Source of the DNA: a virus | Lineage: Duplodnaviria > Heunggongvirae > Uroviricota > Caudoviricetes | IMG/VR virus record: IMGVR_UViG_2534682158_000020 | Span: 1 to 10,864 of that record | DNA length: 10,864 nucleotides | Reading direction: 5' to 3' (one strand) | Part shown: positions 2,038-10,864 of the stretch, in pieces | How positions within the stretch are numbered: position 1 is the first letter of the stretch | Layout: the number at the start of each line of letters is the position of its first letter | Made by a program: the position numbers and the translations under genes | Notes under the pieces: model-generated | What the model saw: the letters and a program-made list of their open reading frames with translations, nothing else | What the model was told of the DNA's origin: nothing | Database searches by the model: none

Positions 2038-2126
2038 AACAATTAACCTGCTGCGAAAAAATTGGATCAGTGCAGGGGAATTATATCAACCGTGTGACGA
2101 AGCGCCACAATTGCCGGATAACAGGC

Positions 2127-2153
2127 AAAAAAAGACCACCGTGACAGGTGGCC
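2127..2153 (-). terminator. Rho-independent terminator, minus-strand orientation
   Basis: On the - strand: GGCCACC / GGTGGTC stem (7 bp with one G-U), 6-nt loop, followed by TTTTTTT (plus-strand A-run 2127-2133). Confidence 0.45.
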
Positions 2154-2385
2154 CTTCGACACAAGTTACACGTTATCCCCAACGTATGAGCATTGCCAAC
2201 AATGCCACATTTGCGGCTGGTGGGCAAAGCGTAACCGGAAAAAAATTCCGGTGGGGCTATTCCTGCTCTTTGTCCTTGCGTCGCTGGCGACGTTTGATCT
2301 CATGCAGAATTTTTTCAGGTAAGAATCCTGCTGATTTATTTTCTGGTAGCAATGGTTTGTTATCTGTCTGCTTCCTGGTCATACA

Positions 2386-2583
2386 TCAACCTTTTGGTTC
2401 GTTACGTTTCCATACCTGCAATGGGCGAGTTTTCCTGTACTCTTTTAGGAATTTCTCAAGAGCAAAAGCACATGGTGAGAATCTTTCTGACTCATGCTCA
2501 TGCGCTATCTTGCTGCGCCGTCTTTTCCGTGAAGGTGATGTTTTTTCGGTTGATTCGTTGTTGGTCATTCTGTGTACCTGCAT
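2386..2583 (-). CDS. Hypothetical small basic protein (65 aa) downstream of the RHH-like gene; weak call
   Basis: ORF 42 nt after the RHH-like stop on the same strand. No clear Shine-Dalgarno and no recognisable family. Confidence 0.2.
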   Translation of the reverse strand: MQVHRMTNNESTEKTSPSRKRRRSKIAHEHESERFSPCAFALEKFLKEYRKTRPLQVWKRNEPKG

Positions 2584-2625
2584 AGCAATGCGCCGGAGTT
2601 CCTCACACCACGGCGCTGATAGTTA

Positions 2626-2931
2626 TTATTCTGATTCTTTGGCCTTGCGGCGCTGGAGTTCTTCACGTGCGACGGTGACGAGCTGCCCGATCTCCTCGGC
2701 GGCTTTGACTCCGATTTTTTCCACCTGCGCCAGTGCATCGAGCGAAGAAACCAGGGGATTTTCTCCGCTTCCTTCTGCCTGGCGCCTGGCGATCTCCCCG
2801 CGCATGGCGGTTACTATAAATCCGGCGTTGCTTTCGCCGTCCAGTTTTACGGATTCCATGCCTTCAATAACATCATGCGGGATCCGAGCTGTCAGTGATT
2901 GTGATTTTGTGTTTTTTGAACCTGTAGCCAT
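2626..2931 (-). CDS. Putative DNA-binding protein, possibly ribbon-helix-helix (Arc/CopG-like); candidate regulator of the divergent early operon
   Basis: ATG at 2931 with GAGAGG 7 nt upstream on the - strand, 101 aa. N-terminal segment SLTARIPHDVIEGMESV fits a beta-strand then helix RHH pattern. Fold assignment is by eye only. Confidence 0.55.
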   Translation of the reverse strand: MATGSKNTKSQSLTARIPHDVIEGMESVKLDGESNAGFIVTAMRGEIARRQAEGSGENPLVSSLDALAQVEKIGVKAAEEIGQLVTVAREELQRRKAKESE

Positions 2932-3020
2932 CTGTAATCCTCTCAATGAAAGTGTAAGACAATATACACACAAAAAGTATTACATAAAAGCATTGACATG
3001 TAAGCCACCTATAAACAAAG
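2932..3020. promoter_or_regulatory. Divergent promoter region between the RHH-like gene and the early operon leader
   Basis: Perfect -35 TTGACA at 2993-2998 on the + strand, but the nearest TATAAA (3010-3015) is only 11 bp away, so the exact promoter is unresolved. AT-rich and free of credible ORFs. Confidence 0.35.
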
Positions 3021-3290
3021 TTACTTACACCTTATTGGTGCAAGGTTCAGAAACGACGAAACCCGGCAGTGCGCGAACACTAACCGGGCTTCTAACCACC
3101 AGCGATAGAAAGATTATCGAGGTAGCTATGTTAAATCATACCACACACCCGCAAGGGCGGGACTTGCACAACCTGAATAAACCCGATGTAAAAAACCTGT
3201 TGCTCGCCACTGCCAGCCAGGGCTATGATTTATACGCACCAGCAAAATCTGGTGCCGGGATTGGCGTCCTGGTATTTAACGAAGCGCACA

Positions 3291-3313
3291 ACACGCGCCC
3301 TGCGTGTTTTTTT
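3291..3313 (+). terminator. Intrinsic terminator inside the early-operon leader (attenuator-like)
   Basis: Stem ACACGC (3291-3296) / GCGTGT (3302-3307), loop GCCCT, then a 7-T run (3307-3313). Lies about 160 bp upstream of the first early gene. Confidence 0.6.
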
Positions 3314-3475
3314 GTGCCGGATAGTCACACCTTATCAATGGTGGGCTGTATGGGGGCGGAGCAATCCGCGCCGGGTTCTTCGTTAACCGGTTACGCCAAC
3401 CCCGTACAGTCCACCGCCAGCGAAATTGGCGTTTCCTGCGGTGGGTTTATTAACCCTAACGAAGAGGCTGCCAAC

Positions 3476-3664
3476 ATGGCTACAGTCCCTACCCTTGTAC
3501 ATTCCCAAACTGCCTTTATCTGGCGCTTTATCATCTTTGGCGCGTCAGAATCCCAAATCATCCACGTCACCGCATGGACGGAACGCGAAGCGCGTAACCA
3601 TTGCCCGTCCGGTTGTGTCGCTGTATTCGCCGCCCGTATTCGTCAGGGGGTGAGTCATGCATAA
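3476..3664 (+). CDS. Icd/Kil-like small protein (host cell division inhibitor family), first gene of the early operon
   Basis: 62-aa ORF, ATG 3476 with AGAGG 8 nt upstream. Motifs FIWRF ... TEREAR ... VFAARI match my recollection of Icd-like proteins of P4-type elements. Stop overlaps the next start. Confidence 0.55.
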   Translation: MATVPTLVHSQTAFIWRFIIFGASESQIIHVTAWTEREARNHCPSGCVAVFAARIRQGVSHA

Positions 3665-3889: not shown

Positions 3890-4189
3890 ATGAAAAAGAA
3901 AAATACTGGCGTTAATGCCAGCGGCCCCGCTCGTCCTGAATTTATGAACGGCGATATTTACCGCGATAAATATGGCGGCATGGTAACGATTAAAGGCGTG
4001 GCAGAACGGCGCATCACTTACCGCCGTGATGGCTACGAATATGACTGCGTGATGCCTGTTTATCAGTTCCGGAGTGATTTTTCACTGATACAGGCCACAC
4101 CACGCAGACAGCCCACCAGCTACGCAAAGGCATGGGCAAATATTCAGAAAATGAAAAACATGATTAACGCATTCAGGGGCAAAAAATGA
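3890..4189 (+). CDS. Hypothetical protein (99 aa)
   Basis: ATG 3890 with GGAG upstream; its stop overlaps the primase start (ATGA at 4186-4189). No family recognised. Confidence 0.6.
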   Translation: MKKKNTGVNASGPARPEFMNGDIYRDKYGGMVTIKGVAERRITYRRDGYEYDCVMPVYQFRSDFSLIQATPRRQPTSYAKAWANIQKMKNMINAFRGKK

Positions 4190-5991
4190 AACTGGCACCG
4201 AACTTAAAAAAACAGCCACACGACAAAATGACCGAAGTCATTATTTTTGCGGGTAGTGATGCCTGGGCGCACGCGAAACAATGGCAGGAGCAGGACGGGC
4301 GACTTGCTGGCGACAATGTTCCGCCTGTATGGCTTGGAGACAGCCAGCTTGACGAACTGGCAGACCTGAAAATTATCGACGATGGTCGCTATTGTGTCCG
4401 GCTGTACAAGGCAGGCCACATCAAGCCGTCAAATATTAATGCCATCGGGCAAAAGCTGGCGGTGGCAGGTGTACGGGATGCGAATTATTACCCTGAGGGA
4501 ATGCACAGCCAGAAGCGGGAGAACTGGCACGAATATCTGGAGCGTGAGCGCCAGAATCTTTCTGATGGTCTGGTTATTCAGCTTCCTGTTAAGAAAAAAA
4601 CAGAAGACAGCGCCGCACCACTGGCGCTTAACCAGATGGGAGCAAGCCAGCGCGGCGAAGTTCTCCTGGCACGTTATGGCGGTGAACTGGCAATCAATGC
4701 GGACTCTGACACCGTTCACCACTACAACGGCGTTGTATGGGAGCCGGTACAGGATAAAGAGTTACAGCGGGCTATGGCGCAGATTTTTATTGATGCGGAG
4801 ATCAGTTATTCGCAGAACGCCATCAAATCGGCGGTCGATACAATGAAGTTAAGTTTGCCCGTAATGGGGAATACCGCCCGTAACCTGATTGGATTCAGTA
4901 ACGGTGTTTTTGATACCCGGACAGGCGATTTTCGGGAGCATGACAAAAACGACTGGCTGTTAATTGCCAGTGAATTACCGTTCAGCCCGCCAGCAGAGGG
5001 GGAAACGCTGGCAACGCATGCGCCGAATTTCTGGAAATGGTTGCGCCGTTCGGTGGCTGAGAATGACCGTAAAGCGGATCGCGTACTGGCGGCGTTATTC
5101 ATGGTGCTGGCGAACCGATACGACTGGCAGTTATTTCTTGAGGTAACGGGGCCGGGTGGAAGCGGTAAAAGCGTAATGGCGGAGATTTGCACCATGCTGG
5201 CGGGTAAGGCCAACACGGTATCGGCAAGCATGAAGGCGCTGGAAGATGCCAGGGAACGCGCGTTAGTGGTTGGATTTTCGCTGATTATCATGCCGGATAT
5301 GACCCGCTACGCTGGTGATGGCGCAGGAATTAAGGCCATTACAGGCGGTGACAAGGTGGCAATCGACCCGAAGCATAAAGCCCCCTACTCAACACGCATT
5401 CAGGCGGTCGTGCTGGCGGTGAACAATAACGCCATGTCATTCAGTGACCGCAGCGGGGGGATCTCACGTCGTCGGGTGATATTCAATTTTTCGGAGGTTG
5501 TACCGGAAAACGAACGCGACCCCATGCTGGCAGAAAAAATAGAAGGAGAGCTGGCGGTTGTGATTCGCCACCTGCTTACTCGTTTTTCTGACCAGGACGA
5601 AGCTAAACGCCTGCTGTATGAGCAGCAGAAATCAGAAGAAGCACTGGTGATAAAACGCGAGGGCGATTCGCTGGTGGACTTCTGCGGCTATCTCATGTCG
5701 TCGGTAATGTGTGATGGTCTGTTAGTGGGTAATGCCGAAATTATTCCGTTCAGTCCGCGCAGGTATCTTTATCACGCCTATCTGGCATATATGAGGGCAC
5801 ACGGATTCGGTAAACCTGTAACACTGACGCGCTTCGGTAAAGATATGCCGGGGGCAATGGCGGAATATGGCAGGGAGTATATGAAACGGAAAACGAAGCA
5901 CGGTTTGCGTTCAAATGTGACCCTTACAGAGGATTCAGAAGACTGGATGCCATCATGTGCATCGGTCACAAATGACGATGGAAAAAATTAA
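4186..5991 (+). CDS. Primase-helicase replication initiator, P4 alpha-like (satellite Pri-Rep)
   Basis: 601-aa ORF with AGGGG RBS. Walker A motif GPGGSGKS in the central region; overall resemblance to phage/plasmid primase P4-family proteins; immediately followed by the iteron cluster. Confidence 0.9.
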   Translation: MKLAPNLKKQPHDKMTEVIIFAGSDAWAHAKQWQEQDGRLAGDNVPPVWLGDSQLDELADLKIIDDGRYCVRLYKAGHIKPSNINAIGQKLAVAGVRDANYYPEGMHSQKRENWHEYLERERQNLSDGLVIQLPVKKKTEDSAAPLALNQMGASQRGEVLLARYGGELAINADSDTVHHYNGVVWEPVQDKELQRAMAQIFIDAEISYSQNAIKSAVDTMKLSLPVMGNTARNLIGFSNGVFDTRTGDFREHDKNDWLLIASELPFSPPAEGETLATHAPNFWKWLRRSVAENDRKADRVLAALFMVLANRYDWQLFLEVTGPGGSGKSVMAEICTMLAGKANTVSASMKALEDARERALVVGFSLIIMPDMTRYAGDGAGIKAITGGDKVAIDPKHKAPYSTRIQAVVLAVNNNAMSFSDRSGGISRRRVIFNFSEVVPENERDPMLAEKIEGELAVVIRHLLTRFSDQDEAKRLLYEQQKSEEALVIKREGDSLVDFCGYLMSSVMCDGLLVGNAEIIPFSPRRYLYHAYLAYMRAHGFGKPVTLTRFGKDMPGAMAEYGREYMKRKTKHGLRSNVTLTEDSEDWMPSCASVTNDDGKN

Positions 5992-6003
5992 ACTTATGGA
6001 ATA

Positions 6004-6233
6004 ACTGTTCACCACTGTTCACCATATCATAAATGTCTTTTATATCAGTATATTATAGGGTGAACAGTTATTTATGAACTGTTCACCAAACTATTCACTG
6101 TTCACCTTTTTGATTGTTTATTGAGCTTAAGGGTGAACAGTGGTGAACAGTTGGTGAATAGTTTCTGTGAAACTGTTCACCCCTTAACATCATGAATAAA
6201 AAGGGAAAATCTCAAAAGGTGAACAGGTGAAGG
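6004..6233. repeat. Iteron cluster / candidate replication origin (P4 ori1/crr-like)
   Basis: Nine perfect copies of the octamer TGTTCACC: forward at 6006, 6016, 6080, 6099, 6174; reverse (GGTGAACA) at 6059, 6132, 6142, 6218. Degenerate copies at 6092, 6153, 6226. AT-rich spacer at 6024-6057. Confidence 0.85.
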
Positions 6234-6277
6234 GTTAAAATGCAAAAATTTTATTTTATTGCTGTGAGGTAAAGCCT

Positions 6278-6523
6278 GTGACAACGAAGCACGCAAAAAA
6301 ACCACAATCTCACGCCCTTGATTTGACAGAACACTGGCTGAGGGTGGCGATAAAAATCATCGATCGCAACGCGGGAGAAGGATACGCGAAAGCACATCCT
6401 GAACTGATAAGCGCATTCATGACAACGGCGGCGGCAAACTTTGCCACGCTGACAGAACGGGAGATTGCCGAAGCGGAACAGGTGACAACCATCAATGTTA
6501 AAACCGGAGAGGTGGAATCATGA
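6278..6523 (+). CDS. Hypothetical protein (81 aa), translationally coupled to ssb
   Basis: GTG 6278 with GAGG 8 nt upstream; stop TGA overlaps the ssb ATG (ATGA at 6520-6523). No family recognised. Confidence 0.55.
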   Translation: MTTKHAKKPQSHALDLTEHWLRVAIKIIDRNAGEGYAKAHPELISAFMTTAAANFATLTEREIAEAEQVTTINVKTGEVES

Positions 6524-6942
6524 CAGCACAGATAGCGGCTTACGGGCGGCTGGTGGCTGACCCGCAGTTAAAGACCACCAGCAAGGGCACACAAATGGCG
6601 ATGGCGAGTATGGCGGTTCCCCTGCCGTGCAGCCAGGCAGATGACGGAACGGCGACGATGTGGTTATCCGTCCTGGCGTTTGGCAGACAGGCCGACGCAC
6701 TGGCAAAGCACCAGAAAGGCGAACTGGTGAGCGTGGCGGGTAACATGCAGATAAGCCAGTGGACAGGCCAGAACGGCGAAACGCGGCAGGGCTGGCAGGT
6801 TATCGCAGACAGTGTAATCAGTGCCCGAACGGCGCGACCGGGCGGCAAAAAAGGCCAGCAGGGCCAGGCTACTGACGCGCTGAACAGAGCAAAACAACAG
6901 GCGGGAAATGATGATCCGTACGGGGATGACATACCGTTTTAA
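6520..6942 (+). CDS. ssb: Single-stranded DNA-binding protein
   Basis: 140 aa; OB-fold region aligns by eye with E. coli SSB (LVADPQLKTT..., WLSVLAFGRQADALAKHQKGELVSVAGNMQISQWTGQNGETRQ); Gly/Gln-rich linker; acidic C-terminal tail ending DDIPF. Confidence 0.85.
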   Translation: MTAQIAAYGRLVADPQLKTTSKGTQMAMASMAVPLPCSQADDGTATMWLSVLAFGRQADALAKHQKGELVSVAGNMQISQWTGQNGETRQGWQVIADSVISARTARPGGKKGQQGQATDALNRAKQQAGNDDPYGDDIPF

Positions 6943-7213: not shown

Positions 7214-8254
7214 ATGAGTGATTTATATTCGCCAGCTATGTTAATACAGGTTGTTAATGCCGAAGATATTCAATGGCAGATTAATTCTTTATTTATAAAC
7301 CTTTTTTTTAAGCGAGTCGTTACATTTGAGACGCGGGATATTGCGCTTGATATTATTGACGATCCAGACATCCCGATGGCTGCGTTTTGTTCACCTATGG
7401 TTGGTAGCAAAGTCTCACGCGATGAAGGCTACGAATCGAAAGTAATTCGTCCTGGCTACATGAAGCCAAAAAGTAGTATCGACCCAAATAAAATAGCCGT
7501 TCGTCAACCAGGCGTATCACCGGAACAATTCAATGCATATTCATCACGCAGTTTCAAAATAAAGCGAGCGTTAGTAAGACAAGCGCAGGCAATTCGTGCG
7601 CGTATTGAGTGGCTTGCTGTTCAGGCGGTTACAACGGGGAAAAATATCATTGAAGGCGATGGAATTGAACGTTATGAACTGGACTGGAATATAAAACCAC
7701 AAAATATTATCACGCAGTTCGGCGGTACGGAGTGGAGCGGTAGAGATTTATCAACATTTGATCCAAACGATGACATCGAAGAGTACGCAGAAATCAGCGA
7801 AGGTACTACAAATATCATCGTAATGGGCCGCAACGTATGGAAAAAATACCGCGCCTTTAAAGCAGTAAAAGATTGCCTTGATACTCGACGGGGATCTAAT
7901 TCCGTTCTTGAAACGGCCCTGAAAAATCTTGGGGATTCTGTAAGCTTCAAGGGTTACGTTGGCGATGTTGCTATTGTGGTATATAGCGGACGTTATACCG
8001 ACGAGGACGGAACTGAAAGATATTTCCTTGATCCTGATTTGATGGTGCTTGGCAACACATCATTACAGGGCATCGTTGCCTACGGTGGCATTCAGGATCC
8101 TGAGTTAATCAGAATGGGGCTTACTAAAGCCGAACTTGCGCCGAAAAATTACATCGTACCAGGTGATCCGGCTATTGAGTACGTACAAACGCACTCTGCA
8201 CCACAGCCAATACCGGCCCGCATCAATCGTTTTGTTACCGTTCGCATTGGTTAA
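7214..8254 (+). CDS. Major capsid protein, lambda gpE family
   Basis: 346 aa versus 341 for lambda gpE, with long collinear matches to gpE as I recall it: GGTEWS.RD.ST.DP.DDIE.YA, NIIV, FKAVK..LDTRRGSNS.LETA.K.LG..VS.KG..GDVAIVVYSG.Y, MVLGNT, YG.IQD. RBS AGAGG. Confidence 0.92.
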   Translation: MSDLYSPAMLIQVVNAEDIQWQINSLFINLFFKRVVTFETRDIALDIIDDPDIPMAAFCSPMVGSKVSRDEGYESKVIRPGYMKPKSSIDPNKIAVRQPGVSPEQFNAYSSRSFKIKRALVRQAQAIRARIEWLAVQAVTTGKNIIEGDGIERYELDWNIKPQNIITQFGGTEWSGRDLSTFDPNDDIEEYAEISEGTTNIIVMGRNVWKKYRAFKAVKDCLDTRRGSNSVLETALKNLGDSVSFKGYVGDVAIVVYSGRYTDEDGTERYFLDPDLMVLGNTSLQGIVAYGGIQDPELIRMGLTKAELAPKNYIVPGDPAIEYVQTHSAPQPIPARINRFVTVRIG

Positions 8255-9216: not shown

Positions 9217-9744
9217 ATGAACAAAAAAAACATGGCAAAAAGTTGCCGTGTAAGCGCCACTGCGTTCGATAAGTGGGGAGTGATTCCCGTCGAGCGTAAG
9301 GGCCGCGAGGCGTTTTATGATGTCGCCAGTGTAATAGATAATCGGGTTAACAATGCAATCAGCCAGATTACAAACGAAACGGGCGAGATTGATGATGATG
9401 AACTCCTACGAGTCAGGATCAGATTGCTGACAGCACAGGCAGAGGCGCAGGAGCTTAAAAACGAGCGCGAACGCGGCGACGTTATTGATACAGCGTTTTG
9501 TATATACGTGCTTTCAAAATTGGCGAGTCAGATTTCTTCAATCATGGACAGCCTGCCGCTTACCATGCAAAGGCGCTTCCCACAGATGACCCCCGCCATG
9601 CTGGATGGCCTGAAAAAAGAAGTTGTCAGAGCCTGTAACGCATGCACAAAACTTGATGAAAACATCCCGCGAATGCTGTCCGATTATCTGATGGAAACTA
9701 CCGGAAATGTGCCTGATAAGTTTCAGCCGGATAAAGACAAGTAA
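9217..9744 (+). CDS. Terminase small subunit, lambda Nu1 family
   Basis: Collinear with lambda Nu1 as I recall it: N-terminal NKK...FD.WG.IPV..KG.E..YD.A.VI; central LTAQAEAQELKNERERGDVIDTAFCIYVLSKLA..ISSIMDSLPLTMQRRFP; C-terminal KLDENIPRMLSDY. Start is ambiguous (in-frame GTG 9193, ATG 9202, 9217, 9232; none has a strong RBS); 9217 aligns best with the Nu1 N-terminus. Confidence 0.85.
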   Translation: MNKKNMAKSCRVSATAFDKWGVIPVERKGREAFYDVASVIDNRVNNAISQITNETGEIDDDELLRVRIRLLTAQAEAQELKNERERGDVIDTAFCIYVLSKLASQISSIMDSLPLTMQRRFPQMTPAMLDGLKKEVVRACNACTKLDENIPRMLSDYLMETTGNVPDKFQPDKDK

Positions 9745-10277: not shown

Positions 10278-10832
10278 ATATTGGTGGGAGGGAGGATCAA
10301 ATCCTTGCAGCCATGGCTGCCCGGGACCGACCGCCGACCCTTGTTCACATCGCCGCAGGTTCGAAAACTTTTTTGGGAAGATGTGCACGGGATTGATAGA
10401 TGAGGTCTATCTATAAAAAATCACAAAATCCGCGCCATTGCTGGATCCGCCAAAAATCCCCCACCTTACGGCAGACAAAGAAAACGCGAATTATGGGCCT
10501 GTTGCAGAGAAAAAAGGTCTCACTAGTTTTGCGCATCCTGGCATCGAGGTTCGTCAGCCTCCCATCAGCAACCAGATAACTAATCTCGCTGGTGGGCATG
10601 ATGCCGATATGGGGACTCCCATAACGGTTTATCCGTGATCATCCACCAGCTTGATGACAGATAACAGGGAGTCATAACGGTTAAAATTGTATACTTTTGC
10701 AGCAAACATTTTTAGCTACACGTTAAGCTATACGATTTTGAGTTTAAATTTTTCAAATTCAATTAAATCAAATGGTTATACGCACTTTTTGAATACTCTC
10801 GTGCACCAAAAAATCCCCAAAAAAAAAACACT

Positions 10833-10864
10833 ACGTTACGTTTACGTTTACGTTTACGTTTACG
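10833..10864. repeat. Tandem hexamer repeat (ACGTTT)n, truncated by the window end
   Basis: ACGTT, then four full ACGTTT units, then ACG, read directly from 10833-10864. Preceded by an A10 tract (10819-10828) and an AT-rich non-coding stretch. Confidence 0.7.

Follow-up and report, generated by a model that had tools for sequence, protein, structure and literature searches.

A mirror-symmetric iteron array directly downstream of rep is the probable replication origin of an Escherichia coli PICI

The DNA analysed here, a stretch of 10,864 nucleotides to which we refer as the window, represents an integrated E. coli phage satellite of about 11 kb, a Gram-negative PICI of the EcCICFT073 family. 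The integrase gene occupies positions 1-1242, and the window also encodes an Ash/Icd-like region, a DUF4222 protein, Rep (4186-5991, + strand), a small ORF, an SSB, a lambda-E-type major capsid protein, a D-type decoration protein, an AlpA-family regulator and a small terminase subunit. The small ORF (6278-6523, +; 81 aa, phrog_1231) is conserved and lies directly downstream of an array of short repeats that follows rep; the SSB gene (6520-6942, +; Pfam SSB, E = 6.9e-16) is part of the replication module adjoining the putative origin, and its place in the gene order is kept in EcCICFT073 and other PICIs. The hallmarks of a PICI are all found, namely a size of about 11 kb, int, alpA, unidirectional genes, an att site of its own and the gene order of EcCICFT073. 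An assignment to the P4-like satellites was rejected, as sid, delta, psu and a full-length alpha gene are all absent from the window and the gene order is that of EcCICFT073.

The att repeat TTTTAGCTACACGTTAAGCTATACGA is located at 10710-10736, and a near-identical copy lies upstream of int in E. coli EC43 (locus L002, 3904-3930), in which the element is inserted next to tRNA-Pro, between yejM and yejO. The two copies are probably attR (window) and attL (EC43 copy), a pairing which implies that the window holds essentially the whole element. At 10832-10864, up to the end of the window, there is a (TACGTT)n microsatellite of 5.7 copies that is absent from this place in the EC43 copy. Two structured RNAs scored above the Rfam gathering score, isrK with 80 bits (3236-3312, +) and the C4 antisense RNA with 76 bits (3334-3421, +); they are placed shortly upstream of the Icd-like coding region and make up a P1/P7-type c4-icd control module within the island. 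A 517-aa ORF with a TTG start at 2111-3664 is probably not a gene, and in annotated relatives the equivalent stretch is taken up by small genes (Icd-like, YlcI/YnfO on the other strand, hypotheticals). In the window, the same stretch also holds the isrK and C4 RNAs.

Rep is a protein of 601 aa with the Pfam domains D5_N, DUF5906 and Pox_D5, and is built from a PICI-type N-domain, a D5_N/SF3 helicase region and a C-terminal winged-helix origin-binding domain of the P4 type. Residues 134-591 are 50% identical to residues 313-771 of P4 alpha, with the match limited to that region of alpha, and identity to the EcCICFT073 Rep is 48% over the full length. The origin-binding domain (aa 493-589, encoded at 5662-5952, +; wing at about aa 563-581) matched PDB 1KA8, the solved C-terminal domain of P4 alpha, with a phmmer E value of 2.4e-24. 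Alpha combines a primase, an SF3 helicase and a winged helix (PMC2777425; PMC8628076), and the Zn_Ribbon_Prim and Toprim_3 domains found in alpha are both missing from Rep. The name primase-helicase, which the initial annotation had given to this gene, therefore goes beyond what has been demonstrated for Rep. Since Rep has no recognisable primase active site, priming is most likely performed by the host and not by Rep, with priming and synthesis presumably carried out by host DnaG and Pol III.

The N-domain (aa 1-122, encoded at 4186-4551, +) contains neither a Zn ribbon nor a P4-type primase. The first ~130 residues of Rep gave no sequence match in Pfam, NCBIfam or PDB, a profile-profile comparison of the N-domain with the P4-type primase region (hhalign) returned a probability of 0.4%, and a Foldseek search of the N-domain model against PDB yielded no matches. 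The fold is probably Toprim-like and degenerate; as judged by eye, the acidic EG and DxD motifs appear to be missing, and the strand ends where they would be expected read FAGSD and KAGH. The N-domain recurs, at 89% identity, at the head of the unrelated AAA_25 helicase of EcCI11128, and its presence in both proteins indicates a mobile, island-specific module.

The first repeat of the array starts 15 nt past the TAA stop codon of the 4186-5991 ORF. Nine perfect copies of the octamer TGTTCACC are found within 6006-6225 and eleven in the whole window, for which the expected count is 0.33 ± 0.55; none of 200 dinucleotide-preserving shuffles gave eleven copies. The perfect sites of the left half start at 6006, 6016, 6080 and 6099 on the + strand and at 6059 on the - strand, and those of the right half at 6132, 6142 and 6218 (-) and 6174 (+). 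Three degenerate sites complete the array, one with a single mismatch (TATTCACC, 6153, -; one-mismatch scan) and two with two mismatches each (TATTCACT, 6092, +, and CCTTCACC, 6226, -; two-mismatch scan). In relatives, the equivalents of 6153, 6092 and 6226 are mostly one-mismatch or perfect copies, which indicates that the three belong to an array of twelve sites and have decayed, and do not resemble the octamer by mere chance. The conserved repeat unit is longer than the octamer, about 10-11 bp with the consensus (A)ACTGTTCACC, and the GC content of the array is 30-37% vs 48.5% for the window. Two further perfect copies of TGTTCACC stand alone, at 5418-5425 (-) within rep and at 7388-7395 (+) in the capsid gene, and the copy within rep is also present in the EC43 element (L002, 9314). 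A second iteron cluster was found neither in the window, from int to attR, nor in 4 kb of DNA flanking the EC43 copy; no DnaA boxes were found near the array and no P4 type 2 repeats in the window. These results agree with the initial annotation in its count of nine perfect and at least three degenerate octamers in both orientations, in placing them right after the 4186-5991 gene and in seeing only one cluster in the window. Its description of an AT-rich spacer holds as to composition; there are three spacers instead of a single one (6024-6058, 6107-6131 and 6182-6217).

The spacing of the sites, described earlier as irregular, turned out to be highly ordered. Start-to-start distances are 10, 43, 21, 12 and 7 bp in the left half, 33 bp between the halves and 10, 11, 21, 44 and 8 bp in the right half, so that nearly all spacings correspond to about one, two or four helical turns, the degenerate sites giving the values of 7, 8 and 12 bp. 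When the outermost left site was paired with the outermost right site, and so on towards the centre for all six pairs, the sums of left start and right end were 12239, 12241, 12240, 12240, 12241 and 12238, implying that all twelve sites mirror each other, within 1.5 bp, about a dyad at 6119.5-6120.5. An independent repeat search returned a 53-nt inverted repeat (I1, 6037-6089/6151-6203; 72% complementary), indicating that the symmetry reaches beyond the octamers. The array thus divides into two mirrored six-site modules about ~6120. The left module (6006-6106) comprises 6006(+), 6016(+), an AT-rich spacer, 6059(-), 6080(+), the degenerate 6092(+) and 6099(+), and the right module (6132-6233) comprises 6132(-), 6142(-), 6153(-), 6174(+), an AT-rich spacer, 6218(-) and the degenerate 6226(-). 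A CRISPR array, with regularly spaced direct repeats of 24-40 bp and unique spacers, was rejected, as it had been earlier, given units of 8-11 bp in mixed orientation, some of which overlap. A classical plasmid iteron origin, with direct iterons of 17-22 bp and DnaA boxes, was likewise rejected in view of the 8-11 bp units, the two orientations and the lack of a nearby DnaA box.

The 35-bp spacer of the left module (6024-6058) lies between convergent iterons and is 70-80% AT in 20-bp windows. The least stable 20-mer of the interval 5950-6320, at 6038-6057 (-17.35 kcal/mol), falls within it, and base stacking thus predicts 6024-6058 as the best candidate for an unwinding element. The spacer of the right module (6182-6217) contains a TAAC...ATGAA motif that is conserved in an alignment of 16 loci, and the central spacer (6107-6131) holds the dyad centre, at ~6120 according to the mirror sums. 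After the last iteron pair, outside the interval 6004-6233, there follows an A/T tract (6240-6257) that most of the 16 aligned loci share in the form ATATTTTTTAATTTTAT. The 20-mer window ranking third in instability (6244-6263) overlaps this tract, which may serve either as another unwinding element or as a promoter element.

The octamer links the array to P4. GenBank record X51522 annotates TGTTCACC as 'ori type 1 repeat' in both ori (9310-9413) and crr (4291-4590), in line with its earlier identification as the P4 type I iteron of ori1 and crr; that alpha binds these iterons is taken from the GenBank annotation, from citing papers and from background. The resemblance extends to the arrangement of the sites. 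The layout of P4 ori is (-)10(-)11(-)22(+)43(-)10(-) and that of the right module (-)10(-)11(-)21(+)44(-)8(-), with the same order and orientation of sites and near-identical spacing; the left module shows this layout as its reverse complement. Window and P4 ori therefore have one module plan in common: three sites, 21-22 bp, one inverted site, an AT-rich spacer of 43-44 bp and two sites. By blastn, 6129-6187 of the window is 83% identical to the ori region of a P4-like element (L005) that carries sid, delta and psu. The two systems differ in how the modules are deployed. P4 has one module at ori, a distant crr and type 2 repeats, whereas in the window two modules are fused head to head and, with one cluster in the whole element, the second distant cis site of P4 is lacking. 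P4 ori is located 2.3 kb upstream. The DUF4222 protein encoded upstream of rep is not homologous to P4 Cnr/ORF106.

The position of the array matches what has been reported for PICIs. The origin of Gram-negative PICIs lies immediately 3' of the replication gene, and a pri-ori plasmid of EcCICFT073 was maintained while its delta-pri and delta-ori versions were not, or only poorly (Fillol-Salom et al. 2018, PMC6092414). As in the window, the EcCICFT073 origin follows rep and consists of short iteron sets flanking AT-rich DNA in a 6+6 mirror layout; this allele, the one tested, differs in its iteron, TGTCTACC, and in a binding domain only ~33% identical to that of the window. The islands of CFT073, ATCC 25922 and IHE3034 have the architecture of the window built from the octamer TGTCTACC, while the catalogued PICIs EcCI224 and EcCIRM13514 (PMC6092414, Table S1) carry the TGTTCACC array, EcCI224 with a site pattern almost identical to that of the window. 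Other PICIs have a different replicon in the same place: 042 and 11128 encode an unrelated AAA_25 (RepA-type) helicase followed by repeats of the AAGTGAGG or AAGTGGGGA type, and RM12579 and D i14 have an AAA_25 helicase of the type in 042 and 11128. The repeats of the AAA_25 PICIs (L090, 6619-6821; L092, 5424-5625) lie between rep and the same small-ORF and SSB genes, with DUF4222 upstream, and such a change of helicase and repeats within one gene frame implies that whole rep-ori cassettes are exchanged within a fixed frame. In SaPIs and Gram-positive PICIs, the origin is described as an AT-rich region 3' of pri-rep that has a set of iterons on either side and is bound by the island's own helicase-initiator (Ubeda et al. 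2007, as cited in PMC6092414). SaPI origins presumably differ from that of the window in the sequence of their iterons and in an unrelated Rep binding domain.

The array is widespread. Of 5426 complete E. coli genomes, 671 contain a match to the 286-bp intergenic region, almost always along its full length and at 90-99% identity, and none of them has it annotated. The rep-array module is also present in vB_KppS-Ant, a 16.5-kb induced 'phage' with terminase, portal and capsid genes of its own. The 10,790-bp circular record deposited as E. coli plasmid pZ1323HEC0475-3 (NZ_CP148328.1; L097) is in fact an EcCI224-like PICI with int, AlpA, Icd-like, DUF4222, Rep and protease-capsid fusion genes, and its rep and array are 95% identical to those of the window. 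The record probably represents an island that was excised and then assembled in circular form, which speaks for excision and assembly and not necessarily for replication, for which it is circumstantial evidence.

We collected 80 further homologue loci from species-representative genomes and analysed them jointly with the window and the loci collected before. Clusters of four or more iteron-like sites lie directly downstream of rep in 81 of 87 Rep homologue loci (window counted), and the sites fall into five octamer types: TGTTCACC, TGTCTACC, TCTCCACC, TGTCCGCC and TGTCCACC. The mirror layout, 2-43-1-21-3/3-21-1-44-2, is kept across octamer types and is also found at the loci of ~810-aa alpha-type proteins in Xenorhabdus and Photorhabdus. 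Single genomes of these genera (L038-L087) contain several loci with an ~810-aa alpha-type gene followed by a mirror TGTTCACC array, X. ehlersii at least five, and thus house many co-resident elements of one iteron specificity. As evidence of selection on the sites, 16 type-A loci from Escherichia, Klebsiella, Raoultella, Kluyvera, Pluralibacter, Citrobacter, Pectobacterium and Pantoea were aligned; the mean majority fraction was 0.94 in iteron columns vs 0.72 in spacer columns (Mann-Whitney p = 3e-15).

The iteron types cannot be told apart by identity over the whole origin-binding domain; most of the differences fall in the wing, whose sequence and indels track iteron type across 88 loci. 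The wing reads EYMKRKTKHG-----LRSNVTL in type A, EYKRAKCTKGPDKGRVITNVLL in type B, EYIRKKSTKG----NMRSNIRL in type C and EYKKAESKKKATRGRIQSNITL in type D. The Rep of Escherichia ruysiae, which has the iteron TGTCTACC, is identical to that of the window at 60 of 70 positions in residues 493-562 and at 7 of 24 in the wing (563-581). The wing is short in all 68 proteins of type A, and insertions in it are found in all proteins of types C, D and E and in five of the seven of type B. The two deeply divergent type-B proteins, among them that of EcCICFT073, also have a short wing, but one that differs in sequence, and the existence of two type-B lineages with one iteron and different wings argues that the relation between wing and iteron is not a simple one-to-one code. 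Homology to alpha, taken together with this co-variation, suggests that Rep would bind the TGTTCACC sites.

We conclude that the array is the vegetative replication origin of the PICI, with a probability of about 0.85. The initial annotation had proposed the array as the probable origin, and this proposal is supported by its position, its architecture, the cognate 1KA8-type domain of Rep and the published pri-ori experiment on EcCICFT073. A single cluster may be sufficient for replication, even though P4 needs two separated cis sites.

A first alternative would be that the array is mainly a Rep-binding site for regulation or copy control, either as an operator for the orf81-ssb-capsid genes or in titration or handcuffing. 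Plasmid iterons commonly double as control sites. The array lies between rep and the downstream genes, in an interval with no terminator or + strand promoter match, and is followed by the conserved A/T tract, at which no sigma-70 match was found on the + strand. As the main function, this is very unlikely, because it would leave unexplained the P4 ori architecture, the AT-rich spacers between convergent sites and the lack of any other candidate origin; as an additional role, regulation is compatible with origin function and does not exclude it.

The array could also be a cis enhancer like P4 crr, with the true initiation site elsewhere in the element. P4 crr likewise lies directly downstream of the replication gene, carries the identical octamer and consists of two repeated modules. 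The modules, however, are of another kind: those of crr are 120-bp direct repeats, 180 bp apart, with the site pattern '< 14 > 18 } 43 < 9 {' occurring twice, whereas those of the window are inverted and of the ori type. Moreover, neither the int-to-attR stretch nor the DNA flanking the EC43 copy contains another cluster that could serve as the initiation site, and in EcCICFT073 rep and its 3' region alone support replication, all of which makes an enhancer role in place of an origin highly improbable. A decayed or chance cluster, or a packaging or attachment site without a role in replication, can practically be dismissed, since nothing specific favours it beyond the 3 degenerate sites among the 12 of the window copy, the shuffles never reach the observed count, the positions of the sites are kept across genera while the spacers drift, attR is located at 10710-10736 and the cos sequences of EcCICFT073 (PMC6092414, supplement) look unrelated. 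Readings of the array as an att or cos site, a DnaA-dependent plasmid origin, a terminator or a promoter were rejected.

With the array as the origin, initiation could proceed as follows. Rep would be made after induction, and its C-terminal winged helix would bind the twelve TGTTCACC-type sites by means of the wing and the recognition helix. Given spacings near whole helical turns (10, 11, 21 and 43-44 bp), the domains, once bound, would sit on the same side of the double helix, and binding would gather the SF3 helicase domains, of the D5/P4 alpha type, into hexamers on the two mirror modules. The AT-rich spacer between convergent sites would then open, most readily at the least stable stretch, 6024-6058. 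The two-fold symmetry would suit the loading of two helicases that depart in opposite directions and hence bidirectional theta replication, with the opened strands coated by the SSB of the island (6520-6942). Speculatively, the two adjacent modules may meet in compact form the two-site need that P4 meets with ori and crr. The SF3 helicases of SV40 and papillomavirus also carry an origin-binding domain of their own, and their sites are inverted and symmetric around or beside AT-rich DNA, which lets two hexamers load; this likeness is an analogy only, and their binding domains and sites are presumably unrelated to those of the window.

The kind of origin described here is already known, given that the P4 type I iterons and PICI origins 3' of rep have both been published and that the array is present in catalogued PICIs. 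A literature search with the bare octamer TGTTCACC returned primer sequences only. In the literature examined we did not find stated that the PICI allele of the window carries the P4 octamer and two mirrored P4 ori modules, that wing and iteron co-vary over five specificities, or that a degenerate Toprim-like N-domain is shared. The basic picture of an iteron origin adjoining its initiator gene is unchanged, and the refinements are modest. They locate the origin of a satellite that is very common in E. coli (~12% of complete genomes), and they describe a PICI origin built from the classical P4 ori module. The latter qualifies the published view, in which Pri-Rep is only distantly related to alpha and the PICI and P4 families evolved independently (PMC6092414).

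The P4-like satellites and the PICI replicon have the octamer, the ori module and the short-wing binding domain in common. It is conceivable, at somewhat below even odds, that they form one replication-specificity group, in which alpha and Rep might fire or titrate each other's origins. If so, two satellite families with different helper phages would be coupled in one cell, and the replicon would have been exchanged between families and not 'evolved independently'. As a corollary, specificity would reside in an exchangeable cassette, the wing (aa 563-581), by which at least five iteron groups are set apart. The co-variation of wing and iteron provides a testable handle on how initiator specificity changes and on the compatibility of satellites within one cell.
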